A stretch of 64,000 nt of DNA from an uncultured Gemmatimonadales bacterium (GTDB lineage Bacteria; Gemmatimonadota; Gemmatimonadetes; Gemmatimonadales; Gemmatimonadaceae): contig CAWBZV010000005.1 in the NCBI GenBank assembly GCA_963793305.1, positions 160,001 to 224,000 of the forward strand, in the 5' to 3' direction. The notes beneath the pieces were generated by a model. It was given only the letters and a program-made list of their open reading frames with translations. It did not search any database and had not been told where the DNA came from. Shown in pieces: positions 29,034 through 59,399 of this stretch (position 1 is the stretch's first letter; every line of letters begins with the position of its first letter). Made by a program: the position numbers and the translations under genes.

Positions 29034-29036
29034 CCC

Positions 29037-29948
29037 GTGCTGAGCACGGCCGCGGCCCTCGCACTCTGTCTCGGCCTGTTCACGGCCGACCACCTCGCGC
29101 GCGCATGGCGCGTTCAAGTCTTAGCGAGAGGGCTGGGCAATCGCACGCCTTTTATCAAAGCGTTCGCGCTGAACGCGGCGAGCGATGCGACGTCCGCCCT
29201 GACGCCGCTCAAGCTCGGCGGCGAGCCCGTGCGGTTCGGCGGATTGATCAACGCGGGCCTCAATGTATCCGACACGATCGCGCTGATCAGCGTCGAGGCG
29301 ATCATCGAATGGGCCGTCGTGATCACCCTCGGCGTCTCGATCTTCTGGCACTGGGGCGGGGCATGGTGGCGCACGCAGCAGCAAGTGCTGCTCCCGCGCT
29401 TGGGGCACGCGATCCCGTGGGTGGCGCTGATTGTTGTCGTGGGCATCGCGATCCTGTTCGGCTTCAGAAAATTCCTGCCGCAGGTCTCGATGTACGTCGG
29501 GGGAACGCTCCGCGACTCGATCCGCCTCGCGCGCCGAATGCCGTTCTGGGCAGTTGCCGCAACGGTACCCATCACGGCGCTTCACGTCGTCGCCCGCATC
29601 GCGATTCTGCCGGCGGTCTTCGCCACGCTCTCCAATCCACCGGCGCTCGGGACGGTTGTCGTCGGATCATTCGTGCTCCTCTACGGCCAGAATTTCCTGC
29701 CGACGCCCTCCGGAGCCGGCGCGATCGAGCTGGGATTCCTGGATGGCGCGGCGGGGTATGTCGGACCCGAGGCGGGCGCGTTGCTCGTCACGTGGCGGTT
29801 CTACACGACGCTGTTGCCCATCGTGCTCGGCCTCGTGTTCGGCACGGCGATGTACGCCCCGGTGCTGCATCGCATCGCGCGCTTCGTCCTCTTACGGCGG
29901 CGCCGAGCGCGCCGCACATTGCAACGTGACAACGACGCTCCGGGCTGA
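29037..29948 (+). CDS. Lysylphosphatidylglycerol synthase TM-like flippase
   Basis: LTPLKLGGEP, PTPSGAGAIE, WRFYT; multi-TM. Confidence 0.8.
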   Translation: MLSTAAALALCLGLFTADHLARAWRVQVLARGLGNRTPFIKAFALNAASDATSALTPLKLGGEPVRFGGLINAGLNVSDTIALISVEAIIEWAVVITLGVSIFWHWGGAWWRTQQQVLLPRLGHAIPWVALIVVVGIAILFGFRKFLPQVSMYVGGTLRDSIRLARRMPFWAVAATVPITALHVVARIAILPAVFATLSNPPALGTVVVGSFVLLYGQNFLPTPSGAGAIELGFLDGAAGYVGPEAGALLVTWRFYTTLLPIVLGLVFGTAMYAPVLHRIARFVLLRRRRARRTLQRDNDAPG

Positions 29949-33277: not shown

Positions 33278-34963
33278 GTGACGTTGATCAGTCCGTCATT
33301 GAGCCCCCCGCGGGCCAAGCTCCAGCAAGCCATGACCGATCCACGCCGCATCATGCGCGGCGTCTACGTCGGTCGCTTCATCATCTCGGTCGCGATCTTC
33401 CTCGCCGCGCAGCTCGTATGGGAGCGGACGCCGACGGAAGATGCGCGGCTGGCCTCGCTCATCTTCGCGGTCGCGATTCTCTTCACGGCCGCGTCCGCAA
33501 CGTATAGCGAAGTCGTTCACGCCGGCTCCCGCCCGATCCCGCGCCCCTTCTTCTCGCTCCAGACGGCGTTCGATATCGCGCTGGTCACGGCCGTGGTCCA
33601 CGTCACGGGTGGGTCGCTCTCCCCGTTCGTGTGGCTCTACATCCTCGTCATCGCCTGCGCCGCACTGTTGCTGCCCGTGGGCGCGGGGCTCTTGATCGCC
33701 CTCGCCTGCGATGTCTGTTACTTCGCCGAAGTCCTCTGGCTGAGTCACACGGCGCCGGACGTTGGTGTCTGGCTCCAACTCGTCGTCTTCGGCACCGTCG
33801 CACTCGGCAGCGGCTATGTCGGCGCCCGACTGCAGCAAGCCGGCGCCGGCACCGCGGCCGAACTGGTGTTCGTGCGGCTGCAGGCCGAGGACATTCTCCG
33901 CAATATCCGGAGCGGCATCATCACGATCGACGCCCGGGGATATTTGCTCTACGCCAACCCGGCCGCCACGGATTTGCTGGGAATGAGGCCACGCCGTTCG
34001 ACGGGTGCACCAGTCGTGCAACAAATCGCGTCCGTCGCGCCGCGCCTGGCGCGGGCGCTCGAGGAGGCTGCCACCCATCGGTTCAGAACCACCCGCGGCG
34101 AGGACATCGTCACGCTGCCGGATCGCGCCTTCCCCATTGGCGTCACGACGACGTTCAGCGATGGCGACGGCACCCCCGGCTCGGCCACGGCGACCGCCAT
34201 TTTTCAAGACATCTCCGGCCAGAAGCGTCTGGAAAGCCTCCACGTGCGCGCGGGCCGTCTGGAGGCGGTCGCCGAGCTGGGCGCGTCGCTCGCCCACGAG
34301 ATCAAGAACCCGCTGGCCTCTATACGCAGCGCCGTCGAACAGTTGGCGCGGATGCCCCAGGCCGACGAGGACGCGCGGACGTTGGGATCGCTGATCACGC
34401 GCGAATCGGACCGGCTGTCACGTCTTTTGACAGAGTTCCTCGACTTCGCGCGCGTGCGCGTCACGCGTCTTCAGGCCGTCGATGTGGGCTCTATCGCGGC
34501 GGCCGCCGTCGATCTGGTCGCGACGCACCCGGATCGGGCATCTGGCGTCTCCATAACCTGTTCCGTTCCCGACACTCCGCTCGTCATCGACGGGGACGAA
34601 GATCTGTTGCACCGCGCCGTGTTCAATCTCGCACTCAATGCGGCGCAAGCGACGCCACCGAACGGGAAGGTCCGCGTGGAGGTCGCGCCGGTCGCGGCGG
34701 AACAACTCCCCAGTGGCGTGTCGTTCGACTCGGGCGCGGTCGCGCTCAAGGTGAGCGACAATGGACCGGGGATCGCGCCGGAAGTGCGCGAGCGCATGTT
34801 CGAACCATTCATGACGACAAAACCAGGCGGGAGCGGATTAGGCCTGTCCGTTGTGCACCGCGCGATCGAAGCCCATCGCGGGGTGGTGCTCGTTGATACC
34901 GATGCGACGGGGACCCGTTTCACTGTGTTGTTGCCTTACTCGCAGAACGAGGACGTGGCGTGA
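33278..34963 (+). CDS. pilS: Membrane PAS histidine kinase, PilS-like
   Basis: TM helices, PAS, AHEIKNPL, DNGPG, FMTTK, GLGL; paired with a sigma54 regulator near the pilins. Confidence 0.85.
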   Translation: MTLISPSLSPPRAKLQQAMTDPRRIMRGVYVGRFIISVAIFLAAQLVWERTPTEDARLASLIFAVAILFTAASATYSEVVHAGSRPIPRPFFSLQTAFDIALVTAVVHVTGGSLSPFVWLYILVIACAALLLPVGAGLLIALACDVCYFAEVLWLSHTAPDVGVWLQLVVFGTVALGSGYVGARLQQAGAGTAAELVFVRLQAEDILRNIRSGIITIDARGYLLYANPAATDLLGMRPRRSTGAPVVQQIASVAPRLARALEEAATHRFRTTRGEDIVTLPDRAFPIGVTTTFSDGDGTPGSATATAIFQDISGQKRLESLHVRAGRLEAVAELGASLAHEIKNPLASIRSAVEQLARMPQADEDARTLGSLITRESDRLSRLLTEFLDFARVRVTRLQAVDVGSIAAAAVDLVATHPDRASGVSITCSVPDTPLVIDGDEDLLHRAVFNLALNAAQATPPNGKVRVEVAPVAAEQLPSGVSFDSGAVALKVSDNGPGIAPEVRERMFEPFMTTKPGGSGLGLSVVHRAIEAHRGVVLVDTDATGTRFTVLLPYSQNEDVA

Positions 34964-36348
34964 CCGACGGAAACGGGAATGGCAACGGGAAGCCGTCGGT
35001 CTTGGTGATCGATGACGAGTCGGGGATTCTCGACTCGTTGCGTATTCTGCTCAAGAACGAAGGCTTCCACCCGCATACCGCGCTCGGCGGCAAGATCGCG
35101 TTGGAACAGATCGACGCGATCAACCCCGACATCGTCCTGAGCGATGTCCGCATGCCGGCGGTCGGGGGCGTGCAAGTCTTGAGCGCCGTCCGCTCGCGCT
35201 ATCCCGATACGCCCGTCATTCTCATGACCGCCCAAGCGACGCTCCAGTCGGCGATGCAGGCGGTCAACGAAGGCGCTTTTTACTATATCCAGAAGCCGTT
35301 CCGGAACGACGAGCTCATCGCGATCCTCAAGCGGGCCGCCGAGCACCGTCGTCTCCGCATGGAGAACACGTCGCTCCGCCAGGAGATCAAGCGTCGCGAG
35401 CGCCGGACCGATGGCCGCCCGGTGGGCAACAGCAAGACCTGGCTCGACGTCGTCACGTTGGCCGAGACGGTCGCCCCCACCGAATCGACCGTCCTGATCC
35501 AGGGCGAATCTGGCACGGGCAAGGAAGTCATCGCCCGCTACATCCATCAGCTGTCGAACCGCACCGACGCCCAGTTCGCGTCGATCAACTGCGGCGCGCT
35601 GCCGGAGAGCCTGCTGGAAAGCGAGTTGTTCGGTCACGTCAAGGGCTCGTTCACGGGCGCCGTGAAAGACAAAAGCGGCCTGTTCACCGCGGCGGCAGGC
35701 GGCACGTTCTTCCTCGACGAAATCGGCGAGACCACACCGGCCACGCAAGTCAAGCTGCTCCGGGTGCTGCAACACCGTGAAGTCATCCCGGTCGGCGCGA
35801 CGGACCCGCTCCCGATCGATGTGCGCCTCTTGGCCGCGACGAATCGCGATCTCGAGGAAGAGATCAAGCGCGGCGCGTTTCGCAGCGACCTATTCTATCG
35901 CCTGAACGTGATCGCGTTGCACCTACCGCCCCTGCGGGACCGGCGCGATGACATTCCGCTGCTCGTCGATGCGTTCCTGCGCGGCGCCTCGGAAGCCCGA
36001 AGCGAACCCCAGAAGCGCGTCAGCGACGCGGCGCTCGAAGTGCTGCGCAGCTTCTCCTGGCCCGGCAACGTCCGCGAGCTCGAAAACGCCCTCGAACGCG
36101 CCGTGATTCTGACGCCGGGCGAGGTGATCGAGGTCAGCGCGCTGCCCGAGCGCGTGACCGAGCGCCGGTCAGAGCCGCTCGTATCCGATCGCGTCCCCTC
36201 GACGCCCACGCTCGATGTCATCGAGCGCGCGTATATCCTGTGGGTACTGCAGAGCGAAGGCGGCAACAAGACCCGCGCCGCCGACGTCCTCGGCATCGAT
36301 CCGTCGACGCTCTACCGCAAGCTGTCCCGTTTCGGGGTCGAGGCGTGA
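34960..36348 (+). CDS. pilR: Sigma54-dependent response regulator, PilR-like
   Basis: Receiver domain, GESGTGKE, GSFTGA, WPGNVRELEN, Fis-type HTH. Confidence 0.88.
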   Translation: MTDGNGNGNGKPSVLVIDDESGILDSLRILLKNEGFHPHTALGGKIALEQIDAINPDIVLSDVRMPAVGGVQVLSAVRSRYPDTPVILMTAQATLQSAMQAVNEGAFYYIQKPFRNDELIAILKRAAEHRRLRMENTSLRQEIKRRERRTDGRPVGNSKTWLDVVTLAETVAPTESTVLIQGESGTGKEVIARYIHQLSNRTDAQFASINCGALPESLLESELFGHVKGSFTGAVKDKSGLFTAAAGGTFFLDEIGETTPATQVKLLRVLQHREVIPVGATDPLPIDVRLLAATNRDLEEEIKRGAFRSDLFYRLNVIALHLPPLRDRRDDIPLLVDAFLRGASEARSEPQKRVSDAALEVLRSFSWPGNVRELENALERAVILTPGEVIEVSALPERVTERRSEPLVSDRVPSTPTLDVIERAYILWVLQSEGGNKTRAADVLGIDPSTLYRKLSRFGVEA

Positions 36349-36349: not shown

Positions 36350-37975
36350 GTGACGAGATGGAAGGCGGCGATCGTGGCGCTGGCTCTGGCCTCATCGCTC
36401 TCGAGCGTCCGCAACGGATTCGCGTACGATGACGTGCCCATGATCTCCCAGAACACGCCGTTCCATGCGCTCGGGAGCATTGGGCATCGGTTCGTCGAGT
36501 CGTACTGGCCCAGAGACCAGGGACACGCGCTCTACCGCCCTCTGACGACAGCGCTGTTCACGCTGGAATGGGCGGTGGGCGGCGGTTCGCCGCTGCCGTT
36601 TCACATCGTCAACATTCTGCTGTACGCGGCCGTCTGCCTGGCGGTCTATGCGCTGGCGCGACGGCTCGTGTCGCCCACCGTGTCCGTGATCGTCGCCGGT
36701 CTCTACGCCATCGACCCCGTGCACGTCGAAGTATTCGCCAACAGCGTCGGCCTCTCGGAGTTGCTCACCGCCTTGAGCGTCATTGGCGCGACGATCTGGT
36801 ATATCGATCGGCGCACCGTGGGTGACCTGCGCGGACGCGATGTCGCCTTGCTGTCGTGTGTCTATGCTCTCGGGTGTCTCGCCAAAGAGTATACGATCGT
36901 TCTGCCCGCGATCTTGGTCGCGGCCGAGCTCACGGTCATTACGGACGATCGGCCGCTCATTGAGCGGGCGAGAGCACTGCGTCTCCTCCTGCTTTCGCTG
37001 ACGCTCGTCGCCGTGGCCTATATCGCCCTTCGGATCCACGTCACGGGTTCGCTCGTCGCCGAAAATCCGGCGATCCCGCTCCGCGATGCGGCCTATGCCA
37101 CGCGCTGGTGGACGATGCTCAGCCTCGTCACGGAGTGGGTACGGCTTCTGGTGTGGCCGGCGCATCTGGCCGCCGTGTACTCGCCGCCCGGCACGCCGCT
37201 CTACCAGCACGCCAATCTCCAGTCCGCGATCGGGGCCGCACTCCTGCTGGCCGTTGGGGCGCTGGCGCTCGCTGGACGGAGGCGCCTGCCGGTGGCGTCG
37301 TTCGGCATCGCGTGGATCGGGCTCATTCTGCTGCCCATTAGCAATGTCGTGGTCAAGTCCGGCGTCCTGCTCGCCGAACGGACGCTGTTTCTGCCGAGTG
37401 TCGGCGCGGCGCTCATTCTGGGCGCCATCCTCCCGATCGCGGCCACCTGGTTCCCGTGGTCTCGCGCGATGCGTCTCTCAGCCACGGCGGCCGGGGTGCT
37501 CCTGGTCGGCGCCGGGATCTGGCGCTCGGCGACGCGCGCGGTCGTGTGGCACGACAATCTGACGTTGTTCGCCGCCTCGATCGTCGACGAGCCGCTGAGC
37601 TACGCCGCGCACTTTGGAGAGGCCGGCATGATGTTCGACAATCGGAAGTATGGAACGGCCGAGCGGGAGATCCATATCGCATTGCGCTTGTATGACGGCG
37701 ATCCGCGCGTGTACGTGGACCTGGGTACCGTCTATGAAAAGACCGGCCACTGCGACGCCGCCACCCGGCTGGCGAACCATGCGCTCGAGCTCGAGCCGTA
37801 CTTCGTGATGGCGCGCCTGATGATCGCGCGTTGCTTGGAAAAGGCCGGGGACTACCGCGCGCTGCGGTCAGTCGCCATCGAGGGCCTCGCCGACGGCATT
37901 CAGACCAAGTTGTATCGCGAGGTGCTCTTCACGGCCGACAGCGGCGTTCGTGCGGCTGCTACCGGACAACATTAA
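36350..37975 (+). CDS. TMTC/DUF1736-like GT-C glycosyltransferase with TPR-like tail, copy 1
   Basis: FAYDD, YRPL, PVHVEVF, LAKE, AERTLFLPS, helical C-terminus. Confidence 0.8.
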   Translation: MTRWKAAIVALALASSLSSVRNGFAYDDVPMISQNTPFHALGSIGHRFVESYWPRDQGHALYRPLTTALFTLEWAVGGGSPLPFHIVNILLYAAVCLAVYALARRLVSPTVSVIVAGLYAIDPVHVEVFANSVGLSELLTALSVIGATIWYIDRRTVGDLRGRDVALLSCVYALGCLAKEYTIVLPAILVAAELTVITDDRPLIERARALRLLLLSLTLVAVAYIALRIHVTGSLVAENPAIPLRDAAYATRWWTMLSLVTEWVRLLVWPAHLAAVYSPPGTPLYQHANLQSAIGAALLLAVGALALAGRRRLPVASFGIAWIGLILLPISNVVVKSGVLLAERTLFLPSVGAALILGAILPIAATWFPWSRAMRLSATAAGVLLVGAGIWRSATRAVVWHDNLTLFAASIVDEPLSYAAHFGEAGMMFDNRKYGTAEREIHIALRLYDGDPRVYVDLGTVYEKTGHCDAATRLANHALELEPYFVMARLMIARCLEKAGDYRALRSVAIEGLADGIQTKLYREVLFTADSGVRAAATGQH

Positions 37976-37984
37976 TGTTCCGCC

Positions 37985-38782
37985 ATGACCGACACGCCCC
38001 GTCCACTCCACGAGCCACTGACCGGCCCCACGATTCAGCGTCTGCGGGGTCGTACGCCGATACAGCGCGGCAACGTCCGCTTGTCGGTGCTGATCCCGGT
38101 CTACAACGAGCAAGCGACGATCCGGCTGATCCTGGACCAGGTGCACGCGGTGAAGGTGCAGAAAGAGATCATCTGCGTCAACGATTGCTCGACGGATGGC
38201 ACGAAGGAGATCCTGGACACGCTCGCGGCCGAAGGGAGGATCGACACGTTGATCCACCAGCCGGTCAATCGCGGCAAGGGCGCGGCGATCCGGACGGCGC
38301 TCGCGGCGAGCACGGGCAACATCGTCATCGTGCAAGACGCCGATCTGGAGTACGATCCCGCCGACTGGCCGGTGCTCCTCGAGCCGGTGATCGACGGAGT
38401 GGCCGACGCGGTCTTCGGGTCCCGCTTCATGGGCGGGCCGCACCGCGTACTGTACTTCTGGCACTCGGTCGGCAACGCATTCCTGACGACCTGCAGCAAC
38501 GTCCTCACGAATCTCAACCTGACCGACATGGAGACGTGCTACAAGGCGATCCGCGGCGATCTCGCGCGGTCGCTCGTGCTGACGTCGGATCGGTTCGGGT
38601 TCGAGGTCGAGGTGACGGCCCGGCTGGCGCAGGCCAAGGTGCGGATCTACGAGGTGCCGATCAGTTACTCGGGGCGGACGTACGCGGAAGGGAAGAAAAT
38701 CGGGTGGAAGGACGGGCTGGCGGCCATCTGGCACATCGTGCAATACAATCTCCAGTCGCCATCGCGGTTGCCCTCGCGCTGA
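37985..38782 (+). CDS. GT2 polyprenol-phosphate sugar synthase, DPM1-like
   Basis: IPVYNE, NDCSTDGT, QDADLEYDP, DMETCYK, GKKIGWKDG. Confidence 0.9.
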   Translation: MTDTPRPLHEPLTGPTIQRLRGRTPIQRGNVRLSVLIPVYNEQATIRLILDQVHAVKVQKEIICVNDCSTDGTKEILDTLAAEGRIDTLIHQPVNRGKGAAIRTALAASTGNIVIVQDADLEYDPADWPVLLEPVIDGVADAVFGSRFMGGPHRVLYFWHSVGNAFLTTCSNVLTNLNLTDMETCYKAIRGDLARSLVLTSDRFGFEVEVTARLAQAKVRIYEVPISYSGRTYAEGKKIGWKDGLAAIWHIVQYNLQSPSRLPSR

Positions 38783-40398
38783 TCGCGGCGCTCGCCTACG
38801 CGAACAGTCTCCTCAACGGCTATACCCTCGACGACGCCGCGATCGTACTCGACAACCCCCTGGTCCATAGCCTGACCGGGGTGTGGCGCGCGTTCGCGCA
38901 TCCCTACTGGCCCGAACCGTGGGGGTGGGGTCAGTACCGCCCGCTGGCGATCGCATCGTTTACCGTCCAATGGTGGCTCGGCGGTGGCGCGCCGTGGGTG
39001 TTTCATCTGGTCTGCATCGCCTGGCACGCCACGGCGTGCGTCCTCGTGTGGCGGCTGCTCTCCGCATGGCTCGCGCCCGCCGGGGCGGCATTCGGCGCAC
39101 TCTGGTTCGCGCTCCACCCCGTTCATGTCGAGGCCGTCGCGAGCGTCGTCGGGCAGACGGAGCTCATGGCCGCCGTCTTCGTTCTCGCGGCATGTCTCGC
39201 GCACCGGCGTGGGCAGCGGATCGCCGCGCTCTGGTTCGCGTTGGCGCTGCTCTCGAAAGAGAGCGGCATCGTCTTTCTCGGCCTCGCCTTGGCCGTAGAC
39301 CTCGTAGACGGGGCTCGCCCGGCTCGCCGGTACGCGCTCTACGTGCGGTACGGCGTCGTCGCGGCACTCTATGCGGCCTGTCTCGTGATCCTGTTCGCGA
39401 GCCAACCCTTGAGCAAGATCGCGCCGACGTGGGCGGGCGCGACGGTCGGCGAGCGGTGGCTGACGATGCTCACCGTCGTGCCGCAATACGTGCAACTGCT
39501 GGTAGCGCCGACCACCCTGCATATGGATTACGGGCCGCGCGTGATCGAGCTCGCGACCGCGGTGACGCCGGCAGTTGGGCTTGGCGCCGCGTTGCTCGTT
39601 CTGCTGGTCATCGCTGCGGTGGCTGCGCGAAAGCGGGCGCCGATGGTCACGCTCGGCCTCGCGTGGATCGCGATCGCCATCGCACCAGTGGCCAACGTGC
39701 TCTTTCCCGCGGGCGTCGTGATGGCCGAACGCACCCTCTATCTGCCGAGCGTCGGTGCGGCGCTCATCGCGGGGTGGGTGGCGTATTGGGTGTCGGAACG
39801 CGTGCCACAACGGGCTGCCGCGGCACTCGCCGCCGCGTGCGCCGTGGCCTTTGCGGCCCGGACGTGGACGCGTACGCCGGTGTGGCATGACGACATCGCG
39901 TTGACGCTCGCCGCGCTGCACGACTCGCCGACATCGTACAAAGCCCATCACGCGGCCGGCGTGTTGTTCGCGCAGACCGGGCACTGGACCGAGGCCGCCA
40001 ACGAGTATCGCTATGCGCGATGGCTCTTTCCTCTCGACCTCGAGCCATATCGAGGCGGAGCTGAGGCAGCGCTGGTCGTGCACGACTACGATGCCGCCGC
40101 GGCGCTGCTCGACAGCGCTCGGCATCTGGCGCCCCGCCGCTTCTCCCCGTGGATTCGTCTGGCCGACGTTCGGTTCAAACAGGAGCGGTGGCGCGAGGCG
40201 AGCGCGCTCGCGTTCGGCGCCTATGAGATGAGTCCCGATTCCCTGCGCGCGCTCGGGATCGCCATCAATGCCAACGTGCGGGCGGGTGACATCCGCGAGG
40301 CCGCATCCATCGTCAAGCGCGGGCTCGCCGATCACCCGGGTGACGAGCGGCTCCGCCGGGAGTCAGTGTACGTCGCTGGGCTACCCGGAAAACCATGA
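38704..40398 (+). CDS. TMTC/DUF1736-like GT-C glycosyltransferase, copy 2 (start uncertain, possibly fused to the GT2)
   Basis: YTLDD, QYRPL, HPVHVEAV, LSKESG, AERTLYLPS, TPR-like tail. Confidence 0.8.
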   Translation: MEGRAGGHLAHRAIQSPVAIAVALALIAALAYANSLLNGYTLDDAAIVLDNPLVHSLTGVWRAFAHPYWPEPWGWGQYRPLAIASFTVQWWLGGGAPWVFHLVCIAWHATACVLVWRLLSAWLAPAGAAFGALWFALHPVHVEAVASVVGQTELMAAVFVLAACLAHRRGQRIAALWFALALLSKESGIVFLGLALAVDLVDGARPARRYALYVRYGVVAALYAACLVILFASQPLSKIAPTWAGATVGERWLTMLTVVPQYVQLLVAPTTLHMDYGPRVIELATAVTPAVGLGAALLVLLVIAAVAARKRAPMVTLGLAWIAIAIAPVANVLFPAGVVMAERTLYLPSVGAALIAGWVAYWVSERVPQRAAAALAAACAVAFAARTWTRTPVWHDDIALTLAALHDSPTSYKAHHAAGVLFAQTGHWTEAANEYRYARWLFPLDLEPYRGGAEAALVVHDYDAAAALLDSARHLAPRRFSPWIRLADVRFKQERWREASALAFGAYEMSPDSLRALGIAINANVRAGDIREAASIVKRGLADHPGDERLRRESVYVAGLPGKP

Positions 40399-42194
40399 GC
40401 GAGACGTTCGACGAGCAGGACCGCTGGCAGCGCTGGGCCGTCGCGAGTCTCGCGCTCATCGCCGTTCTGTGCTACGCGAACGCGTTGGCCAACGGGTACG
40501 TGCAGGATGATCAGGGCATCATCCACGACAACCCGCTGGTCACGACGGTATCCGGCCTGTGGCGGGCGTTTATTCATCCGTACTGGCCCGAACGGAACGG
40601 CGCCGGTCAGTATCGGCCGCTCGTCATCGCGTCATTCGTGTTCGACCGCGCCGTCCTGCATCTCGGCGCCTGGTGGTTTCACCTCGAGAACGTCGCCTGG
40701 CACGCGTTCGTGTGCGTGCTCGTGTATCGTCTGCTCTGTTTAACGCTCTCCTGGCGTGCCGCCTGGCTCGGCAGCGCTTGGTTCGCGCTGCAGCCTATAC
40801 ATGTCGAGGCCGTATCGAACGGCGTCGGTCGCTGCGAGCTCATGGCGAGTGCCTTTGTCCTGCTCGCGTTCTTTGCCCACCGGGAACGAAAGCGCATCGC
40901 GGTGCTCTGGTTCGCGCTCGCTCTCGCCTCCAAAGAAAGCGGCATCGTCTTTTTGGGACTCGCTGTACTGAACGACGTATTGCTGAATCGCTCGAGCACG
41001 AACACGACTGGCACGAACGCAACGGACACGAACGCGGCGGCCACCACGACAGGCGCGCAGCGCCTTCGCGAGACGTATCTCTCGTACCTCTGTGTCGCGA
41101 CAGTCTACGCGGGTGTGCTGAGCCTGGTCTTCCAGCACAAGATGTTCGTCGCCACCGCGGTGACGTGGGACGATGCGACTCCGGTCGATCGCTGGCTGAC
41201 AATGCTGCGCGTGGTGCCGGAGATCGCGCGGTTGCTGCTCGCGCCGGTCGACCTCAAAGTCGACTACACGCCGCGCACGATCGATTTGGTCACCACGGTG
41301 ACGCCGGCGGTCGTCCTCGGGGCCAGCCTGCTGGTCGCCTCGCTCATCGCGATGGTGGCGGCCTGGCGCCGCGCGCCGGCGGTCGCGTTCGGCATTGCCT
41401 GGTTCTATATCGCGTTCTCGCCGGTATCGAACGTCCTGTTTCCATCGGGCGTCGTCCTCGCCGAGCGCACGTTGTATTTGCCGAGCGTGGGCGCGGCAAT
41501 GGTGGCGGGATGGATCGCCGAGCGCGTGCTCGCGGCTCGTCCTCGTGCGGTGGCCGTGTTCGCGACCGCCCTGTTCGCGGCCTTCTCGGTGCGCAGCTGG
41601 ACGCGCACGCCCTTCTGGCACGACAAGCGGCATTTCCTGATCCAGGAAGTGTCCGAGGAGCCGGAATCCTACCGCGCGCATTTCACGGTCTGCGTGCTCA
41701 TGGCGCTGGAGAAAAATTTCAGTGCCGGTGCGTACGAGTGCCGGGTCGCGCGGCAGTTGCATTCCCGGGACATTGGCCCGTATGACACCGGCGCGGACAA
41801 CGCCCTGGGTCTCCACGACACCGCGACGGCCGAGGCGTTGCTCGACAGCGCCTTGCACAAGGGTCCCGACGACTACGCGACGCTGCTGCTCTTCTCGCGC
41901 CTGCGCCGCGTCCAGGGTCGCTATCGCGAGTCGATCGCCCTCGCGTTCTCGGCCTACGAGTCCATGCCGGACAGTCTGTCCCCTATCGACGAGTTGACGA
42001 GCTCCGCGCAGAAGCTCCACGACTTTATGGATGCCGAGGCCGCGCTCCGCCGCGCCCTGGCCGACCACCCAACCAGCGCGCACCTGCACGAGAGCTATGC
42101 CGCGATGCTCGCGGATCGCGGGGACACCGCGGCTTCGCGCCGCCAATTGGCACTGGCCAGATCTGGCGCGATCGCCACGCTGTTCAACCAATAG
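40395..42194 (+). CDS. TMTC/DUF1736-like GT-C glycosyltransferase, copy 3
   Basis: YVQDD, QYRPL, PIHVEAV, ASKESG, AERTLYLPS, TPR-like tail; ATGA overlap. Confidence 0.8.
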   Translation: MSETFDEQDRWQRWAVASLALIAVLCYANALANGYVQDDQGIIHDNPLVTTVSGLWRAFIHPYWPERNGAGQYRPLVIASFVFDRAVLHLGAWWFHLENVAWHAFVCVLVYRLLCLTLSWRAAWLGSAWFALQPIHVEAVSNGVGRCELMASAFVLLAFFAHRERKRIAVLWFALALASKESGIVFLGLAVLNDVLLNRSSTNTTGTNATDTNAAATTTGAQRLRETYLSYLCVATVYAGVLSLVFQHKMFVATAVTWDDATPVDRWLTMLRVVPEIARLLLAPVDLKVDYTPRTIDLVTTVTPAVVLGASLLVASLIAMVAAWRRAPAVAFGIAWFYIAFSPVSNVLFPSGVVLAERTLYLPSVGAAMVAGWIAERVLAARPRAVAVFATALFAAFSVRSWTRTPFWHDKRHFLIQEVSEEPESYRAHFTVCVLMALEKNFSAGAYECRVARQLHSRDIGPYDTGADNALGLHDTATAEALLDSALHKGPDDYATLLLFSRLRRVQGRYRESIALAFSAYESMPDSLSPIDELTSSAQKLHDFMDAEAALRRALADHPTSAHLHESYAAMLADRGDTAASRRQLALARSGAIATLFNQ

Positions 42195-42339
42195 CTGTCA
42201 ACAAATGCGGCAGCGGTCGAAAGGGGCACCGCAGACTGCAATGCGTCGTGCAAATCACGCCGCTGATTCATCTGGATCGCGAAGATTGCCCGACGTTCAT
42301 GTTGTTCTATGGCAATAACTTACATAGTTGAGTTCGTCG

Positions 42340-42355
42340 TGGCCCGAGCGTTGCC
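42340..42355 (+). promoter_or_regulatory. Sigma54 -24/-12 promoter of the first pilin
   Basis: TGGCCC-N5-TTGCC with exact GG-N10-GC spacing; IHF-like TGGCAA-N4-TTA at 42310-42322. Confidence 0.75.
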
Positions 42356-42432
42356 TTAGTACCGCGCAGACGTCGGTACACGGTGACGCGTGGTCACCGG
42401 GCCCTCAACACCCCCCTCCGGAGTATCTAGTC

Positions 42433-42846
42433 ATGAAGACGGCCAAGAAAGGTTTCACACTGATCGAGCTTCTGATCGTCGTGGTCATTATCGGTATTCT
42501 TGCCGCGATCGCGATTCCGAAGTTCGCTTCGACGAAGCAGAAGGCGTATACCGCCTCGATGAAGACTGACCTGCGTAACCTCGTGACCGCGCAGGAAGCG
42601 TACTTCTCCGACAACACGACCTACGCTGGCGCGACGGCGAGCCTTTCGACCTCGTTCCACGTGTCGGCTGGTAACGCGGTTGCGTTCGTCTCGAACACCG
42701 CGACGGGTTGGAGCGCGACGGCGACGAACACGTTCGTCCCGACGACCGCGAGCGGCCATATCTGCGGCGTGTGGGTTGGTGGTTCGGCGTCGCAGCCGAG
42801 TGGTATCACGGCTGACTCGATCGAAGGTGCGCCGGCTTGTTCGTAA
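42433..42846 (+). CDS. pilA: Type IVa major pilin, copy 1
   Basis: MKTAKKG/FTLIELLIV class III signal, GGAG RBS, C-terminal Cys pair. Confidence 0.92.
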   Translation: MKTAKKGFTLIELLIVVVIIGILAAIAIPKFASTKQKAYTASMKTDLRNLVTAQEAYFSDNTTYAGATASLSTSFHVSAGNAVAFVSNTATGWSATATNTFVPTTASGHICGVWVGGSASQPSGITADSIEGAPACS

Positions 42847-42869
42847 GCTGACCTGAAGTTCCGCTTTGC

Positions 42870-42906
42870 CGACGGGCCGGGGATAACTCCCCGGCCCGTC
42901 GAGTTT
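42870..42906 (+). terminator. Terminator-like hairpin between the two pilins
   Basis: 14-bp perfect stem CGACGGGCCGGGGA-TAAC-TCCCCGGCCCGTCG with a short T tail. Confidence 0.65.
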
Positions 42907-42976
42907 GCAGACCACGTTGGGACAGTCTGTCACTTCACCCTCAAGTTGCGAAAGCAGAGTGCCGATAATGAACAGT

Positions 42977-43393
42977 ATGCGATACTCTCAGAAGAAAGGC
43001 TTCACTCTGATCGAACTTCTGATCGTCGTGGTGATCATCGGCATTCTTGCCGCAATCGCGATCCCGAAGTTCGCGTCGACGAAGCAAAAGGCGTATACCG
43101 CCTCGATGAAGACCGACCTGCGGAACCTCGTGACAGCCCAAGAGGCGTACTTCTCGGACAACACGTCCTACGCGGGGGCCACTGCCAGCCTCTCGACCTC
43201 GTTCCACGTGTCGGCGGGTAACGCGGTTTCCTTCGTCTCGAACACCGCGACGGGTTGGAGCGCGACGGCCACCAACACGTTCGTCCCCGCGACCGCGAGC
43301 GGCCATATCTGCGGCGTGTGGGTTGGCGGTGCCGCGTCGAAGCCGAGCGGCATCAATGCCGACTCGCTCGAGGGCGCCCCGGGCTGTTCTTGA
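42977..43393 (+). CDS. pilA: Type IVa pilin, copy 2
   Basis: MRYSQKKG/FTLIELL; mature protein differs from copy 1 at 8 of 130 residues; alternative start at 42968. Confidence 0.9.
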   Translation: MRYSQKKGFTLIELLIVVVIIGILAAIAIPKFASTKQKAYTASMKTDLRNLVTAQEAYFSDNTSYAGATASLSTSFHVSAGNAVSFVSNTATGWSATATNTFVPATASGHICGVWVGGAASKPSGINADSLEGAPGCS

Positions 43394-43521: not shown

Positions 43522-44565
43522 ATGGGGCTCTTCGGCCGCAAGAAAACCACCATCGGACTCGATATCGGATCCGGCCTCGTCAAGGTCGTCGTGATCGAGC
43601 ACGGGCGCGAGCCCGAGCTGACGAGAGTCGCGATTACCCCACTGTCCGCCGACGCGATCGTCGATGGCGAGATCATGGATCCGACGATCGTCGCCGACGC
43701 GATCCGGCAGGCGCTGGAGACCGCGGGGGTGAAGAAAGCCAAGGGCGTCGTGACGGCCGTGGGTGGTCGCGACGTGATCATCAAGAAGATCCAGATCGAG
43801 CGCGTGAAGGAATCCCAAGCGCGCGAGCTGATGCGCTGGGAAGCCGAGCAACACGTGCCGTTCGACATGGAATCGGTCGAGCTGGACTTCCAGATCTTGG
43901 ACCCCGATGGGGACGGCCTGGAGATGGCCGTGCTGCTGGTGGCCGCGAAACGCGAGCTCGTCGAGAACCGCCTGCGCTTACTCACCGACGCCGGGTTGGC
44001 TCCGACGACCGTCGATGTCGATGCCTTCGCGCTCCACAATGCCTTCGAAGTGAACTATCCGGACGCGATGACCGGTGTTGTCGCGCTGGTGAACATTGGC
44101 CACGAAGTCACAAATATTAATATCTTGGACGATGGCGTCCCGATCCTGACCCGCAATGTGGCGGTCGGCACGCGCCGGCTGAGAGAAGATCTGCAACGCG
44201 AGCGCGGGCTGTCGCAGGAAGAAGCCGACGGTCTACTGCAGGGGTTCGATCGCTCGCCCCACCTGGATGCCGTGATCGAGACGCGGAGCGAGGAGATCGC
44301 GGTCGGCATCGAGCGCGCCGCGGCGTTCCTCGCCTCGTCGTCCCGCTCGGCCGGCCAGCTGCGCGCCGTGTACACGTGCGGCGGCGGGGCGCGGATTCCG
44401 GGACTCACCGAAGCGTTGGCCTCGCGCCTCCGCTTGTCGGTCGAGCAAGCGAACCCGTTGGCGAACTTGAAGGTGCGTGACGGCGCTTTCGATTCGCTCG
44501 TCACAGACGAAGTCGCGCCACTCTTGATGCTTCCGATTGGTCTCGCCCTTCGCCACGCCGCGTGA
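43522..44565 (+). CDS. pilM: Type IV pilus assembly protein
   Basis: IGLDIGSG, EAEQHVPF, VAAKRE, GGGAR, IGLALR. Confidence 0.93.
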   Translation: MGLFGRKKTTIGLDIGSGLVKVVVIEHGREPELTRVAITPLSADAIVDGEIMDPTIVADAIRQALETAGVKKAKGVVTAVGGRDVIIKKIQIERVKESQARELMRWEAEQHVPFDMESVELDFQILDPDGDGLEMAVLLVAAKRELVENRLRLLTDAGLAPTTVDVDAFALHNAFEVNYPDAMTGVVALVNIGHEVTNINILDDGVPILTRNVAVGTRRLREDLQRERGLSQEEADGLLQGFDRSPHLDAVIETRSEEIAVGIERAAAFLASSSRSAGQLRAVYTCGGGARIPGLTEALASRLRLSVEQANPLANLKVRDGAFDSLVTDEVAPLLMLPIGLALRHAA

Positions 44566-44569
44566 CACT

Positions 44570-45292
44570 ATGATTGAAATCAACCTGCTGCCAGGCGCCG
44601 GGAAGAAAGCCCGCGGGAAAGCGGGCGGTCCCGATGTCGGAGGGAAGGTCGCCTCCGCCGCGTCGGCGCTCAAGGAACCGTACCTGATTCTCTGCGTCAT
44701 GACGCTGCTGCTGGCGGGCGGGGTGATCGGGTTCATGTTCAAGCAGCAAGACGACAAGAACCAAGAGCTCACGGCCACCGAGCAGAAGAACGTGCAGGAC
44801 TCGACGCGCTACGCGGCCGTCCTGCGCGAGAAGAAGAAGGCCGAGACGCAGCGCGACTCGGTCATGCACCAGCTGAATATCATCAAGACCATCGACAACA
44901 ATCGCTTCGTCTGGCCCCACGTGATGGACGAGATCAGCCGGGCCATGCCACAGTACACCTGGTTGACGGCGCTGGAGCAGACGAGCGCGGTCACGATCGT
45001 CGGCACGGTCGACACGACGACCAAGAGCAAGAAAAAGAAGGCCGAAATGGAAGACGAGCCGGCGCCGAAGCTCACGTTCCGGATCGCCGGGAACACCGTC
45101 GACATTCAGGCGCTGACGCGGTTCATGAAGCTGCTCGAGGCGTCGCCGTTCATTCAGAACGTGCAGCTCGAGAAGTCGGATGTCGCGTTGGTCGATGGGA
45201 AGGATGTGACCGAGTTCTCGCTGTCGGCCGAGTATCAGACGCCCGACTCGACGGCGATCCGCACGATCCCCCTCACGCTGTCGGTGCGGTAA
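44570..45292 (+). CDS. pilN: Type IV pilus assembly protein
   Basis: MIEINLLP, single TM, coiled coil. Confidence 0.9.
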   Translation: MIEINLLPGAGKKARGKAGGPDVGGKVASAASALKEPYLILCVMTLLLAGGVIGFMFKQQDDKNQELTATEQKNVQDSTRYAAVLREKKKAETQRDSVMHQLNIIKTIDNNRFVWPHVMDEISRAMPQYTWLTALEQTSAVTIVGTVDTTTKSKKKKAEMEDEPAPKLTFRIAGNTVDIQALTRFMKLLEASPFIQNVQLEKSDVALVDGKDVTEFSLSAEYQTPDSTAIRTIPLTLSVR

Positions 45293-45298
45293 CCCGCT

Positions 45299-45943
45299 AT
45301 GCAATTCCCTCCGAAAACCCCGCGCGACCTGGCGTACCTGGGCTTCTGTATCGTCTGGTTCGGCGGCATCTTCGCCTACTGGACGATGGCGTACTCGCCG
45401 AAGGAGTCCGAGCTGGCCGCGGTGCAGTCGCACATCCAGCAGCTCGAGCAGGGCAACCAGCGGGCGAAGGCCGAGCTGGCCAAGGGCAGCGTGAACGATC
45501 TGCGCGCCCAGGCGCTCCGCTATCAGCAGAACCTGCAGCTGATGCGGCAGCTCGTGCCGACCACCAACGAAGTGCCGGCGCTGCTCGAGCAGGTGTCGAC
45601 GGCCGCGCGGCGAGTGAACCTCGAGCTCAACGGCGTCGATCCGGAGCCGGTGATCTCGGGCGACCAGTTCGATACCTATCGCTATCAGATCACCGTGATC
45701 GGTGACTACCACGCGCTCGCGGCGTTCCTGACGAACATCGGTTCGCTGACGCGTATCGTCGCCCCGGTCAACCTCAAGCTCGCGGCAATGTCGCAGCAGG
45801 ACGCGGACCGCCTCCATGCGGGCCGCAACAAGTCGGCGCTGAGCTCCAAGTTCGAGATCCAGACCTACGTCGCCAAGGGCGCCGCGGCCACGGTGGACCC
45901 GTCGGTCCACGGGCGGCCGGCGAAGCCCGGAGCCAAGTCATGA
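45299..45943 (+). CDS. pilO: Type IV pilus assembly protein
   Basis: TM, coiled coil, EVPALLEQV, GDYHALAAF; position in the operon. Confidence 0.88.
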   Translation: MQFPPKTPRDLAYLGFCIVWFGGIFAYWTMAYSPKESELAAVQSHIQQLEQGNQRAKAELAKGSVNDLRAQALRYQQNLQLMRQLVPTTNEVPALLEQVSTAARRVNLELNGVDPEPVISGDQFDTYRYQITVIGDYHALAAFLTNIGSLTRIVAPVNLKLAAMSQQDADRLHAGRNKSALSSKFEIQTYVAKGAAATVDPSVHGRPAKPGAKS

Positions 45944-46716
45944 TGATGCGATCTATCGGGTTCGTCCTCGCCAGTGTCGCGATCATCGCGACGCGGGCCA
46001 ACGCGCAGGGAATGATCAGCGGCGCGAAAGCGGTTGCCGGTCGTGCGGCGAGCGCAGTGAACGCGCACACCGCGGCTGAGCAGAGTCCCACCGCCACACC
46101 CACCGGCACGACCACCGCAGCGACGCCGGCGGCGTCGACCGCGGCGAGCAAGGTCACGCCAATTACCACCACCGCCAAAACGACTCCGGTCGTCACCACC
46201 ACGACGAAGTCGTTGGCGGCGCCCGCCGCCACGACCAAGGCTGCCCCGGCCGCGACAACGAAGCCCGTCGCGGTCGCCAAGGCGGCCCCGGTAGCAAAGA
46301 CGGCGCCGGCGGCTGCGCCAATGGTCACATCGGACACCGGCGCGCGCTCGATCTCGGTCACGCAGCGCGGCATGAAAGGCGAGGTCTCGCTCAACCGCGA
46401 AGTGTTCAGCTACGACGCAGGCGGCCGACGCGATCCGTTCGTCTCGCTGCTCCGCAATGGCGATCTTCGCCCGATGCTGAACGACCTGCGCTTGGTGGCG
46501 GTGCTCTACGACCCCACCGGGCGTAACTCGGTCGCCGTGATGAACAACGTCACGACGAAGGACAACCAGTACCGGGTCAAGGTGGGCCAGACGCTCGGAC
46601 GCATGCGCGTCGCCGGCATCGAGCCCCGGGAAGTCGTGTTCACGATCGAGGAGATCGGGTTCAGTCGCCAGGAAGCGCTGGTGCTCGGTGATTCATCCAG
46701 AGTGAGGACGCAATGA
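45940..46716 (+). CDS. pilP: PilP-like protein with a Thr/Ala/Pro-rich linker
   Basis: GRRDPF motif, YRVKVGQTLG; lies between pilO and pilQ. Confidence 0.7.
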   Translation: MMMRSIGFVLASVAIIATRANAQGMISGAKAVAGRAASAVNAHTAAEQSPTATPTGTTTAATPAASTAASKVTPITTTAKTTPVVTTTTKSLAAPAATTKAAPAATTKPVAVAKAAPVAKTAPAAAPMVTSDTGARSISVTQRGMKGEVSLNREVFSYDAGGRRDPFVSLLRNGDLRPMLNDLRLVAVLYDPTGRNSVAVMNNVTTKDNQYRVKVGQTLGRMRVAGIEPREVVFTIEEIGFSRQEALVLGDSSRVRTQ

Positions 46717-48672
46717 AGCATGTGAGGATGCTGATCGCCGCCTCCGGTCTGGCGCTCGGAAGCGCGCAGGCCATGGTGGTGGCTACCCCGCCGGCGCCGC
46801 GCGTCGCGGGTGCCGTCACGGGGGTCAGCGTACTCCCGTCGGCCGGGAGAGCAGACGTGGTCGTCGATGTCGACAAATCCGTCGACATCCAGGACTTCGT
46901 CTTGGAGATGCAGCCCTACCGGATCGTCGTCGACTTCACCGGCGCCCGGTTGGCGACAGGCTCACGGTTCTACGATCGCTCGCCACGCGGTGCGATCACG
47001 AACGTGCGCTACGCACAGTACAAGGCCGGCGTCGTCCGCGTCGTGATCGAGCTCGATGGCGCGCACAAGTACAGCATGACGCGCGATGACCACGCGGTCC
47101 ACGTGACCATCGATGGCGGCGAGGGCCAGTTCGCGGCCTGGTCGTCGGGTGGCGTCACGTTCCCCGTGACGGCTGCCGCGTCGATCGCGCCGGCCGCGTC
47201 GATCACCGCGATGCCCGCGGACGCGGTCCAGCAGGGGATAACCCCCGCGGCGCCGATCGTCTCCAGTGCCGCTGGCCTCGTGGTTCCGGTCGCGAAGCGC
47301 TCGCCGGTGCCAATCCCCGGCCACAGTGTGCTGCAGCACGCGACGCAGTCCACCCAGCCGCGGATCAACATTACCTATTACGACGCCGAGATCCGGGAAG
47401 TGCTCGGCGCCTTCGCTGCCTTCTCGGGCCGGACGATCATCGTCGGCCGCGAAGTGCAGGGGAACGTGACCGCCGAGATTCGCGATCAACCGTGGGATGT
47501 CGCGCTGCAGTCGATTCTGTCGGCCCAGCAGCTGGCGGCCTCGGAAGACCAGTACGGCATTATCACGGTCGACTCCTATAAGAACATTCAGGCCAAGCAA
47601 GCCAGCGAGCCGCTGATTACGCAGCTCGTGTCGATCAACTACGCGAGCGCCCCGTCCCTCGTCGCGACCGTCAATTCATTGCTGGCGCGCGACTGCGGCG
47701 GAGCGGGTGGTGGTGGCGGGACGCCGGCTGCCTGCGCACCGCGCGGGAACGTCGTCGCGGACTCGGGGACGAACAGCCTCTTGATCACCGAATCGCAGTC
47801 GCACATGAACGACGTGATCAACTACGTGCGCGACCTCGATATCCGGACGCCGCAGGTGTCGATCAAGGCCAAGATCGTGTTCATCAATCGCACGGTCGCC
47901 CAGCAGCTCGGGTTGGCCTACGACTTCGAGGAGCCGAACCAGTACTTCAACAAGCTCGTCGACCACGTCAACCCGGCGCAGGCGCCGAGCTTGTACGACC
48001 CGAATACCTATGTCGTCAACCTGGGCGGCGACGCGCTCGCTGGTATCGCCAACGCCAGCCGGCCGCTCGCGTCGGGGTCGGCGCTCAACCTGATCTACTC
48101 GATGAGCCTCGGGAAGTTCTCGCTCACGTCGTTCCTCGACGCGTTGGCGATGAACAACCTGTCCGACGTGCAGGCCGAGCCGAGTGTGGTCACGCTCGAC
48201 AACCGGCCGGCGAAGATCCAGGTCGGTCAGGAAACCCCGATCCGCGTGATCGACGCCTCGTCGAACGGCGTCGGCGGAACGGCCCGTGCGACGGTGTCCT
48301 TCAAGGAGACTGGTATCATCCTCCAAGTGACGCCGCACATTACGAACAACGGCCAGGTCCTGATGCAGCTGCACGCCGAGCAGTCGACGCTGTCACAGAC
48401 GGGCGGCGACCTCGGGTACTTCTTCTTCAAGCGCTACGCCGACAACCAGCTCCTCGTGAACGACGGCGAGACGGCGGTAATCGGTGGCCTCACGCAGACG
48501 ACAGTGACGAAGTCGAAGTCGGGCATTCCGTTCCTCTCCGACCTGCCGCTGATCGGGAGCTTGTTCTCCCAGAACGTCGAACGAGGAAGACAAGCAAGAC
48601 CTGCTGATCCTCGTGACACCGCACATTCTGCCCGAGAACGAGGCCGTCCGCACGCCGTCCGCGACGCGCTGA
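46713..48672 (+). CDS. pilQ: Type IV pilus secretin (apparent frameshift at 48578-48583)
   Basis: AMIN domain, PWDVAL, TGIILQVTPHI, GETAVIGG, GIPFLSDLPLIG; corrected tail DLLILVTPHI. Confidence 0.92.
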
Positions 48673-48735
48673 GGTCTGTTTCGCCCCGTTCGCCCGCTCG
48701 GAGCGTTCTCCGGGCGGGCGACGTATTTTGGGGTA

Positions 48736-57918: not shown

Positions 57919-59395
<1,477 letters not shown>

Positions 59396-59399
<4 letters not shown>

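Follow-up and report, generated by a model that had tools for sequence, protein, structure and literature searches.

A candidate pilin O-glycosylation system of three GT-C/tetratricopeptide repeat proteins and a putative GT2 donor synthase in an uncultured Gemmatimonadales bacterium

One bacterial enzyme that combines a GT-C glycosyltransferase with a tetratricopeptide repeat (TPR) tail and acts on pilins is TfpW, which Villela et al. describe as a 646-residue GT-C protein with a cytoplasmic N-terminus, 11 predicted membrane helices, and a C-terminus that forms a large periplasmic TPR domain (10.1101/2020.04.19.049825). A DDX motif in its periplasmic loop 1 is reported to be indispensable, since mutation abolishes pilin glycosylation; tfpW itself lies immediately downstream of pilA and is required for pilin glycosylation (10.1101/2020.04.19.049825). 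The same account has TfpW placing D-arabinofuranose from a lipid-linked donor on several pilin serine and threonine residues, and it places TfpW homologues next to pilA in several proteobacteria (10.1101/2020.04.19.049825). Here we describe a comparable block of genes from an uncultured soil bacterium of the Gemmatimonadales. It lies in a stretch of 64,000 nucleotides (nt) of contig CAWBZV010000005.1 (positions 160,001 to 224,000), which we call the window, and it comprises three membrane proteins, T1, T2, and T3, and a GT2-family glycosyltransferase, all encoded between the type IV pilus regulator gene pilR and two pilin genes.

Two further bodies of work frame this locus. Glycosylation of pilins by TfpO or TfpW is described as protective against pilus-specific phages (10.1101/150227; PMC11841053). 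For the animal enzymes TMTC1-4, Eisenhaber et al. (2021) tabulate seven motifs in the human proteins and describe 11 membrane helices followed by C-terminal TPRs, while their analysis still calls transferase activity undemonstrated (PMC7801869). We consider it reasonably probable that T1-T3 and the GT2 together O-glycosylate the major pilin in the periplasm, with a polyprenyl-phosphate sugar as the donor, and by analogy the pili of this bacterium are probably sugar coated much as in Pseudomonas strains that carry TfpW.

Fold, motifs, and operon structure of the transferase block

The genes run on the forward strand in the order pilS, pilR, T1, GT2, T2, T3, pilA1, pilA2, pilM, pilN, pilO, pilP, pilQ. 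From pilS through T3, neighboring genes either overlap or lie 1 to 9 bases apart: T1 starts with a GTG one base past the pilR stop, and the start of T3 overlaps the stop of T2. The T2 start is uncertain because the only ATG, GTG, or TTG upstream of its first membrane helix, the GTG at 38704, overlaps GT2 by 79 nt. The initial annotation, made from the letters of the window, had read this region as three paralogous membrane proteins and a GT2 packed tightly between pilR and two pilins, and our gene calls and pairwise identities of 31 to 49% confirm that reading. T2 and T3 share 48.8% identity over 551 amino acids (E 4e-161), T1 and T2 32.3% (E 3e-56), and T1 and T3 31.2% (E 1e-53); on these alignment statistics the paralogy of the three proteins is far beyond chance. 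The motifs that the initial annotation quoted are all present in the sequences, as are its counts for the pilins given below. The loop motif reads GFAYDD, GYTLDD, and GYVQDD in the three paralogues, all of which also have YRPL and KE; DPVHVEV, HPVHVEA, and QPIHVEA occupy the corresponding place in T1, T2, and T3, and an AERTLFLPS or AERTLYLPS motif is likewise present.

Several residues that would be catalytic or donor binding are conserved well beyond this locus. In alignments of 27 and 30 relatives alike, D38, D39, R74, P75, H136, E138, K180, E181, and Y291 (T3 numbering) are invariant, and Y73 is invariant among the 27 and nearly so among the 30. The acidic D-D/E motif of GT-C enzymes is thus represented by D38 and D39 in 27/27 and 30/30 sequences. 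The membrane-domain alignment of the 30 relatives adds Y63, W64, H96, A131, P134, V137, G145, P284, L287, P293, N346, G352 as invariant positions and A356, E357, R358, L360, and L362 as near-invariant ones. Conservation of the catalytic motifs DD, YRP, HPxHVE, KE, and AERTLY, which vary little or not at all in these 27 and 30 relatives, argues for active enzymes. The T3 model and the likeness to other GT-C enzymes suggest that the loop carrying D38 and D39 faces the periplasm.

We modeled T3 with AlphaFold from an alignment of 27 relatives. The model has a predicted local distance difference test (pLDDT) score of 85.3 and consists of eleven long membrane helices and, at residues 411 to 598, ten helices of TPR-like form; the tail is of TPR type, with no beta-trefoil insertion. 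We aligned the model to every representative chain with VIA-align, in which Z values below about 13 may reflect an arrangement common to helical membrane proteins, and the GT-C matches of T3 exceed that level and head the ranking. They begin with AglB (3waj; Z 20.0, 327 amino acids, root-mean-square deviation [rmsd] 5.0) and Pmt1-Pmt2 (6p2r_B; Z 19.7, 346 amino acids, rmsd 4.3), continue with STT3 (6s7t; Z 19.1), Pmt4 (9e61; Z 17.9), and ArnT (5f15; Z 17.8), and reach ALG12 (Z 17.3) and PglB (5ogl; Z 16.3) lower down. Residues ~5 to 440 of T3 are aligned overall, and each GT-C match spans 314 to 349 residues of the membrane domain. Interleaved with these are TPR proteins that match the tail, including PilW (2vq2; Z 18.0) and PilF (2fi7; Z 17.6). 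TPR matches in Pfam are present in T1, T2, and T3, and the tail is supported by a PDB profile search as well. Of the features proposed at the outset, the TPR tail is borne out by the T3 model and by Pfam, and the GT-C fold by the T3 model and its matches at Z ~18 to 20 in VIA-align, the one search that revealed the fold of the membrane part. A Foldseek search with the whole model gave only TPR proteins among the matches listed, and PDB sequence searches with T3, a full-length profile, and a membrane-only profile gave TPR proteins only or nothing significant; by these searches, no solved structure is related in sequence to the T3 membrane domain. T3 also has a serine-, threonine-, and asparagine-rich insertion, NRSSTNTTGTNATDTNAAATTTG, at residues ~196 to 220 (window 40980 to 41054), between membrane helices 6 and 7. 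The model falls below pLDDT 50 over 203 to 216, the loop would be cytoplasmic in the topology proposed here, T2 lacks the insertion, and several relatives have other insertions at that place.

Family assignment places the three proteins near the TMTC group and beneath its formal boundary. T1 matches PMT_2 above the cut-off (E 1.7e-6) and has no match to TMTC_DUF1736 (PF08409); T2 (E 3.9e-3, 17.5 bits) and T3 (E 2.2e-3, 18.4 bits) match PF08409 weakly, below its gathering score of 27 bits. A PF08409 search of the bacterium's own genome gave 0 matches above cut-off. Of the 30 relatives, 10 have a membrane domain with a DUF1736 match at E ≤ 0.01 (best 8.5e-7), and in 5 it has a PMT_2 match. The PMT (PF02366) and MIR domains are absent from T1-T3 in Pfam at E ≤ 0.01, and NCBIfam assigns them to no glycosyltransferase family. 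In a protein language-model atlas, bacterial PMT_2 clusters are nearest, and a eukaryotic DUF1736 cluster stands at rank 22 with a score of 0.93. We therefore keep only part of the TMTC label in the initial annotation: T1-T3 are TMTC-like by architecture and most published motifs, yet they fall under Pfam's TMTC threshold, and motif M6 was not found. The family is very large. With clusters drawn at 50% identity, its membrane-domain profile matches 109,151 cluster representatives at E ≤ 0.001; tightening the limit to 1e-10 leaves 82,115, and a limit of 1e-30 leaves 18,631. A tblastn search of plasmids with the T3 membrane domain gave one weak archaeal match.

The GT2 protein supplies the second half of the argument. 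Its best NCBIfam matches are AglJ (1e-32), a dolichyl-phosphate hexose transferase (2.7e-19), and PpgS (1.2e-15), with ArnC also matched, all below their (equivalog) cut-offs; among solved structures its best relative is 5mlz, the dolichol-monophosphate-mannose synthase of Pyrococcus (E 8.5e-13), with GtrB and ArnC next. The proposal that this gene encodes an enzyme of the polyprenyl- or dolichyl-phosphate sugar synthase kind is upheld by the NCBIfam matches and by 5mlz, and the protein probably belongs to that class, an assignment that holds at the level of class. Because the matches include synthases for several different sugars, the sugar is not readable from the sequence. No C-terminal membrane helices were seen in the GT2 sequence. 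We also considered, and rejected, a UbiA-family gene at 8302 to 9393 as a prenyl-ribose transferase of an arabinose pathway; it is a heme O synthase and the sole UbiA-family gene in the window.

Linkage to type IV pilus genes across Gemmatimonadota

The closest database proteins and loci to the window are all records of metagenome-assembled genomes from Gemmatimonadota. We took the best 80 of at least 677 matched stretches (at least 615 of them confirmed), which yielded 76 loci, all from Gemmatimonadota, and annotated these by tblastn with twelve proteins of the window. The linkage to pilins that the initial annotation asked a neighborhood survey to establish is present: 65 of the 76 loci have type IV pilus genes on the same strand, with pilR in 57, GT2 in 46, and pilA in 43. 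The order of pilMNOPQ is kept in relatives. A prepilin open reading frame (ORF) lies within 1.5 kb in 32 of the 58 loci that have at least 700 nt past the last transferase gene. One transferase gene was detected in 31 loci, two in 29, three in 15, and four in 1. These counts are an underestimate, as one locus with a single detected transferase (L053) also holds a PMT_2-type gene (E 3.6e-8) and another long membrane ORF, besides a GT2, before its two pilins. Many related loci have a second, divergent pilS/pilR-like pair (29 to 36% and 40 to 46% identical to those of the window) between the pilins and pilM (L016, L018, L023, L033, L040, L043, L046, L055, and others); the window does not.

The 11 loci without type IV pilus genes fall into three short contigs (2.7 to 5.7 kb) and eight lone paralogues, 7 of which have 10 kb of flank on either side. 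For several lone paralogues, the same assembly also has a pilin-linked set, and two (L022 and L030) lie in unrelated, uninformative neighborhoods. In our tree, 7 of the 8 lone paralogues form one clade nested within the pilin-linked genes. The tree also groups the paralogues into orthologue clades that match operon position, with a clade of its own for T1, the first in the operon.

We searched the genome of the bacterium itself (5.7 Mb, 92% complete) with the full-length profile. It gave 17 matches, namely T1-T3, 13 TPR-only matches, and 1 weak hit to another PMT_2 gene, and only T1-T3 among these cover the membrane domain. PF13231 gave ten matches in the genome, T1 included, and seven PMT_2-type genes elsewhere in it score above T1. 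We also drew an even sample of 151 genomes across the phylum, which includes two genomes flagged unpublished (G053 and G093) that enter only the sample tallies. The membrane-domain profile (E ≤ 1e-20) is found in 84 of the 151, in 82 of 149 high-quality genomes, and in 17 of 31 from the same family. PilM was found in 143 of the same 151 genomes, so that the module is an optional addition to a near-universal pilus. Among 20 regions upstream of pilM from genomes without the family, pilA directly follows pilR in 11, so that the block is an insertion exactly between regulator and pilin. In 2 of the 20 regions a GT2 lies beside pilA; these presumably hold a more divergent transferase.

The pilin as candidate acceptor, and the alternatives

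The two pilins are close copies, with 125 of 133 aligned residues identical, and each ends in Cys-Ser. Serine and threonine account for 25 of the final 79 residues of pilin 1 and 23 of those of pilin 2. The match of PilA1 to a PilA model of Myxococcus type (E 3.3e-19) falls short of that model's cut-off. In the structure model of the pilin (pLDDT 78.9) there are a long N-terminal helix and strands at mature residues 74 to 81, 85 to 92 (GWSATATN), and 104 to 109; because the conserved GWSATATN forms strand 85 to 92, S87, T89, and T91 would share one face. Among major pilins of related loci, the median serine/threonine fraction of the globular part is 0.297 beside the module (32 loci) versus 0.244 without it (14 loci), with a one-sided Mann-Whitney p of 2.4e-4 among relatives that are not independent of one another, which lends the pilin weak support as acceptor. 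Two finer features pointed out in the initial annotation, the alternating run GWSATAT and the terminal Ser after the last Cys, do not mark glycosylation: the same strand motif occurs in pilins of relatives without the module, and the residue after the last Cys varies among relatives. A predicted complex of T3 with the pilin scored 0.00 in a run made without controls, which speaks neither for nor against binding.

Expression of the enzymes and of the pilin may be coupled. The gap of 238 bases before pilA1 holds TGGCCCGAGCGTTGC, a match to the sigma-54 −24/−12 consensus. The window has 19 matches to the sigma-54-type pattern versus 10.75 expected, and in 9 of 37 related loci TGGC-N7-TTGC occurs 84 to 112 nt upstream of the first pilin, versus 239 of 4377 background windows. 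Because the transferases are translationally packed with pilS and pilR and pilA1 has its own sigma-54-like promoter, the cell would produce the enzymes alongside the very regulators by which pilin expression is driven. The hairpin that follows pilA1 folds at −37 kcal/mol (z −6.15 versus shuffles) and was not called by a simple terminator scan; upstream of pilA2 (window 42847 to 42976) no sigma-54-like element was seen. Behind this strong hairpin, pilA2 may be expressed by read-through only, or it may be a spare or variant copy.

We propose the following scheme. As its family suggests, the cytoplasmic GT2 would load polyprenyl phosphate with a single sugar taken from a nucleotide sugar, and a flippase encoded outside the operon would carry the lipid-linked sugar to the periplasmic face. 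There, by analogy with TfpW and TMTC enzymes, T1, T2, and T3 would present a catalytic Asp-Asp in their first periplasmic loop and bind the protein acceptor through their periplasmic TPR domain. Acting before assembly, on PilA that has its anchor still in the inner membrane, they would glycosylate serine and threonine hydroxyls of its globular part. Because the three transferases are anciently diverged yet co-retained, with one donor synthase, they are probably not redundant; they may modify different sites, or one may initiate and the others extend. Like TMTC1-4 on cadherin strands, each paralogue might recognize different exposed beta-strand or loop serines and threonines of the folded pilin, an idea we regard as rather unlikely but worth stating. 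If it were true, bacteria would have evolved fold-directed O-glycosylation of the TMTC type as a means of coating pili, and pilins would offer a tractable model for site choice by TPR-bearing GT-C enzymes on folded proteins. The sugar coat may, as the initial annotation suggested, also shield against phages.

Several observations weigh against assigning the pilin as the acceptor, or against the scheme as drawn. Eight of the 76 loci are lone paralogues away from pilus genes, and the family is not strictly tied to pilins. The numbers of transferases and pilins do not track each other across loci (3:2, 3:1, 2:3, and 3:3). The serine/threonine ranges of pilins with and without the module overlap, and genomes without the module, too, encode pilins with the GW(S/T)A(T/S) strand. 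Because PilM is near-universal, its co-occurrence with the family does not discriminate. The operon has no flippase gene, and the 92%-complete genome gave no match to the GtrA family (PF04138). Other periplasmic proteins of the pilus are possible acceptors, of which the linker of PilP is an example.

That last point leads to the most serious alternative, in which T1-T3 are protein O-glycosyltransferases that act chiefly on other envelope proteins of the pilus machinery, or on a wider set of periplasmic proteins, with the pilin at most one among them. PilP (45940 to 46716) has, after its signal sequence, a mucin-like low-complexity linker of ~90 residues rich in Thr, Ala, and Pro, and the actinobacterial and fungal PMTs prefer disordered regions rich in serine and threonine. 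The TPR tail resembles generic protein-binding TPRs, those of PilW and PilF included, and lone paralogues stand away from pilins in genomes that also have the pilin-linked set. The block nonetheless lies directly upstream of pilA, not of pilP or pilQ, and it holds this position in loci that differ in their distance to pilMNOPQ or have a second pilS/pilR pair in between; TfpW, the characterized enzyme of the same design, acts on pilin. We judge this alternative unlikely. It is less likely again that the enzymes decorate a non-protein acceptor, such as lipid A, lipopolysaccharide, or exopolysaccharide, as ArnT and GtrABC do, and are merely co-regulated with pili. The PMT_2 family matched by T1 also covers ArnT-like enzymes, ArnT is among the fold matches, and pairs of a GT2 and a GT-C enzyme are described as a standard design for extracytoplasmic glycan modification (PMC11194591). 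Against this stand the C-terminal TPR domain, which suggests a protein partner, and the motif set YRP, HPxHVE, KE, DY, and ERxxY, which resembles that of the protein-directed TMTC group; the seven other PMT_2-type genes of the genome could serve glycan or lipid targets, and the site between pilR and pilA is conserved. That T1-T3 are non-catalytic TPR scaffolds or pilotin-like assembly factors keeping a GT-C-like membrane domain is hardly credible, even though PilW (2vq2) and PilF (2fi7), both factors of pilus biogenesis, can be aligned to the tail by structure and some database sources name relatives "PilF," since 30 diverged relatives all keep the residues for catalysis and donor binding and the dedicated donor-synthase GT2 is co-inherited in 46 of the 76 loci.

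Periplasmic glycosylation of the major pilin is therefore the explanation we prefer. If the family truly glycosylates pilins, type IV pili with a sugar coat would be widespread among soil phyla, with a bearing on phage adsorption, surface attachment, and DNA uptake in uncultivated bacteria, and the animal TMTC enzymes would gain a bacterial model that is simple to experiment on. The Gemmatimonadota version is suited to testing division of sites against chain extension because it has three co-retained paralogues and a single donor synthase.

Neighboring genes and comparison with known systems

Table 1. Features of the locus, with positions in the window and the evidence for each
Feature	Position	Strand	Evidence
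pilS-type sensor histidine kinase	33278..34963	+	Pfam 6TM_PilS, PAS, HisKA, HATPase_c
pilR-type sigma-54 activator, response regulator	34960..36348	+	Pfam Response_reg, Sigma54_activat (E 3.5e-67), HTH_8
T1, divergent paralogue, putative GT-C membrane glycosyltransferase with C-terminal TPR, 541 amino acids	36350..37975	+	PMT_2, TPR; 31-32% identity to T2/T3
GT2, putative polyprenyl-phosphate monosaccharide synthase, 265 amino acids	37985..38782	+	PF00535 (E 2.6e-31)
T2, GT-C and TPR paralogue, 564 amino acids, start uncertain	38704..40398	+	48.8% identity to T3; TPR_19 (E 2.2e-6); weak DUF1736
T3, GT-C and TPR paralogue, 599 amino acids	40395..42194	+	AlphaFold model, fold matches
Sigma-54-type promoter-like element TGGCCCGAGCGTTGC	42340..42354	+	Consensus match only; ~80 nt upstream of pilA1
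pilA1, major type IV pilin with Ser/Thr-rich globular part, 137 amino acids	42433..42846	+	N_methyl (E 2.3e-9)
Hairpin after pilA1, perfect 12 bp, GC-rich, without U-tract	42871..42900	+	Folding energy versus shuffles
pilA2, second pilin, 138 amino acids, 94% identical to pilA1	42977..43393	+	N_methyl; pairwise alignment
pilM, pilN, pilO, pilP, pilQ (type IV pilus alignment complex, secretin)	43522..48902	+	ORFs; pilQ: Secretin, AMIN, Secretin_N

Other pilus and envelope genes are scattered through the window. Those for pilB (T2SSE and MshEN; 17366 to 19189) and pilC (T2SSF; 20393 to 21595) lie ~15 kb upstream of the module, and directly after pilC is a membrane acyltransferase of the Acyl_transf_3 family (21629 to 22750; E 1.9e-25), a type of enzyme that O-acetylates glycans elsewhere. 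The stretch from 27031 to 29948 encodes a GT4 protein like N-acetylglucosaminyl-phosphatidylglycerol synthase (E 3.6e-78, below cut-off), a DUF2334 protein, and an LPG_synthase_TM protein, and from these matches it looks like a membrane-lipid glycosylation cluster. The pilQ ORF (46713 to 48902) has its secretin domain up to residue 624 of 729, followed by an arginine-rich tail of ~100 residues, and overlaps the chorismate synthase ORF (48736 to 49926) by 167 nt; a frameshift, an assembly error, or a mis-chosen start could account for the overlap. An HslU-like AAA ATPase, preceded by an HslV-like proteasome subunit, appears as two ORFs (AAA, 57873 to 58466; AAA_2, 58821 to 59399), and the gene may be broken or mis-assembled. 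At the end of the window, a GspH/FimU-like minor pilin gene (62022 to 63019; N_methyl and GspH) and the small ORF next to it may start a minor-pilin cluster.

Among known systems, the PglL and TfpO (PilO) enzymes resemble what we propose in that they modify pilin serines and threonines in the periplasm, and tfpO also adjoins pilA. They are of the Wzy_C type and transfer preassembled oligosaccharides linked to undecaprenyl pyrophosphate, whereas T1-T3 have no such Pfam match. The GtrA/GtrB/GtrV and ArnC/ArnE-F/ArnT systems share with this operon the pairing of a GT2 synthase of lipid-phosphate sugars with a GT-C transferase; their target is O-antigen or lipid A and they have a flippase gene, whereas the operon here encodes TPR-bearing transferases and no flippase. 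Actinobacterial Ppm1/Pmt and the fungal PMTs (GT39) work in two steps of the kind proposed here, with a GT2 that loads polyprenyl phosphate and a GT-C enzyme that transfers to serines and threonines of exported proteins. The PMTs have a luminal MIR domain where T1-T3 have a TPR tail, PF02366 and MIR are not matched here, and PMT systems serve the secretome, whereas these genes are linked to one presumed substrate gene.

The animal enzymes of Pfam TMTC_DUF1736, family GT105 of CAZy, are similar in build. T3 likewise has 11 membrane helices followed by C-terminal TPR repeats, and in both cases several paralogues coexist. We compared motifs by eye with those printed in Table 4 of the 2021 analysis. 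M1 (DD) and the KE core of M4, KE(T/Q)xxT, are present in T1-T3. M2, SHKSYRP, is represented by its YRP core, with the HKS part replaced; M3, RxD, is RxE in T3 (an acidic residue after VGR), with L and Q in place of R in T1 and T2; and M5, DW, which lies in the DUF1736 loop, is DY in T2 and T3 and VY in T1, where the Asp is missing. M6, PxxP, has no counterpart that we could find in T1-T3, and M7, ERxxY, is ERTLY in T2 and T3 and ERTLF in T1. TMTC enzymes are protein O-mannosyltransferases that act on cadherins, whereas the acceptor proposed here is a pilin and the donor lipid a bacterial polyprenol.

TfpW, from the Pseudomonas (para)aeruginosa group IV strains Pa5196 and PA7, remains the closest comparison. 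Our limited literature search found no TMTC-like or PMT_2/TPR enzyme acting on pilins apart from the TfpW work, and none in Gemmatimonadota; among the bacterial enzymes of this design that it turned up, TfpW alone has an assigned substrate. Judged by its published description, it is a GT-C protein like T1-T3 (646 versus 541 to 599 amino acids), and they share with it the DD in loop 1, ~11 membrane helices, and the C-terminal TPR domain. The transferase genes adjoin the major pilin gene here and in relatives, as tfpW does, but upstream and within the pilSR operon. The TfpW motif YX6PFX7P of periplasmic loop 4 is absent from T1, T2, and T3 in a regular-expression search, a relaxed form occurring only at residue 262 of T2, and no TfpX-like gene was seen in the operon. 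The donor of TfpW is tied to DprE1/DprE2 genes for decaprenyl-phosphate-arabinose, whereas this operon has a single DPM1-like GT2, and where TfpW is one enzyme there are three paralogues here, in position-specific orthologue clades. Their TMTC-like motifs are a further point of difference. The initial annotation had set TfpW aside as a different kind of enzyme; a GT-C protein described with 11 helices, a DDX motif, and a TPR domain, and encoded beside pilA, has the same design (10.1101/2020.04.19.049825). Because TfpW, a proven pilin glycosyltransferase, has this same build, we do not regard T1-T3 as a new kind of system; by analogy they share the design of TfpW and of the TMTC enzymes.

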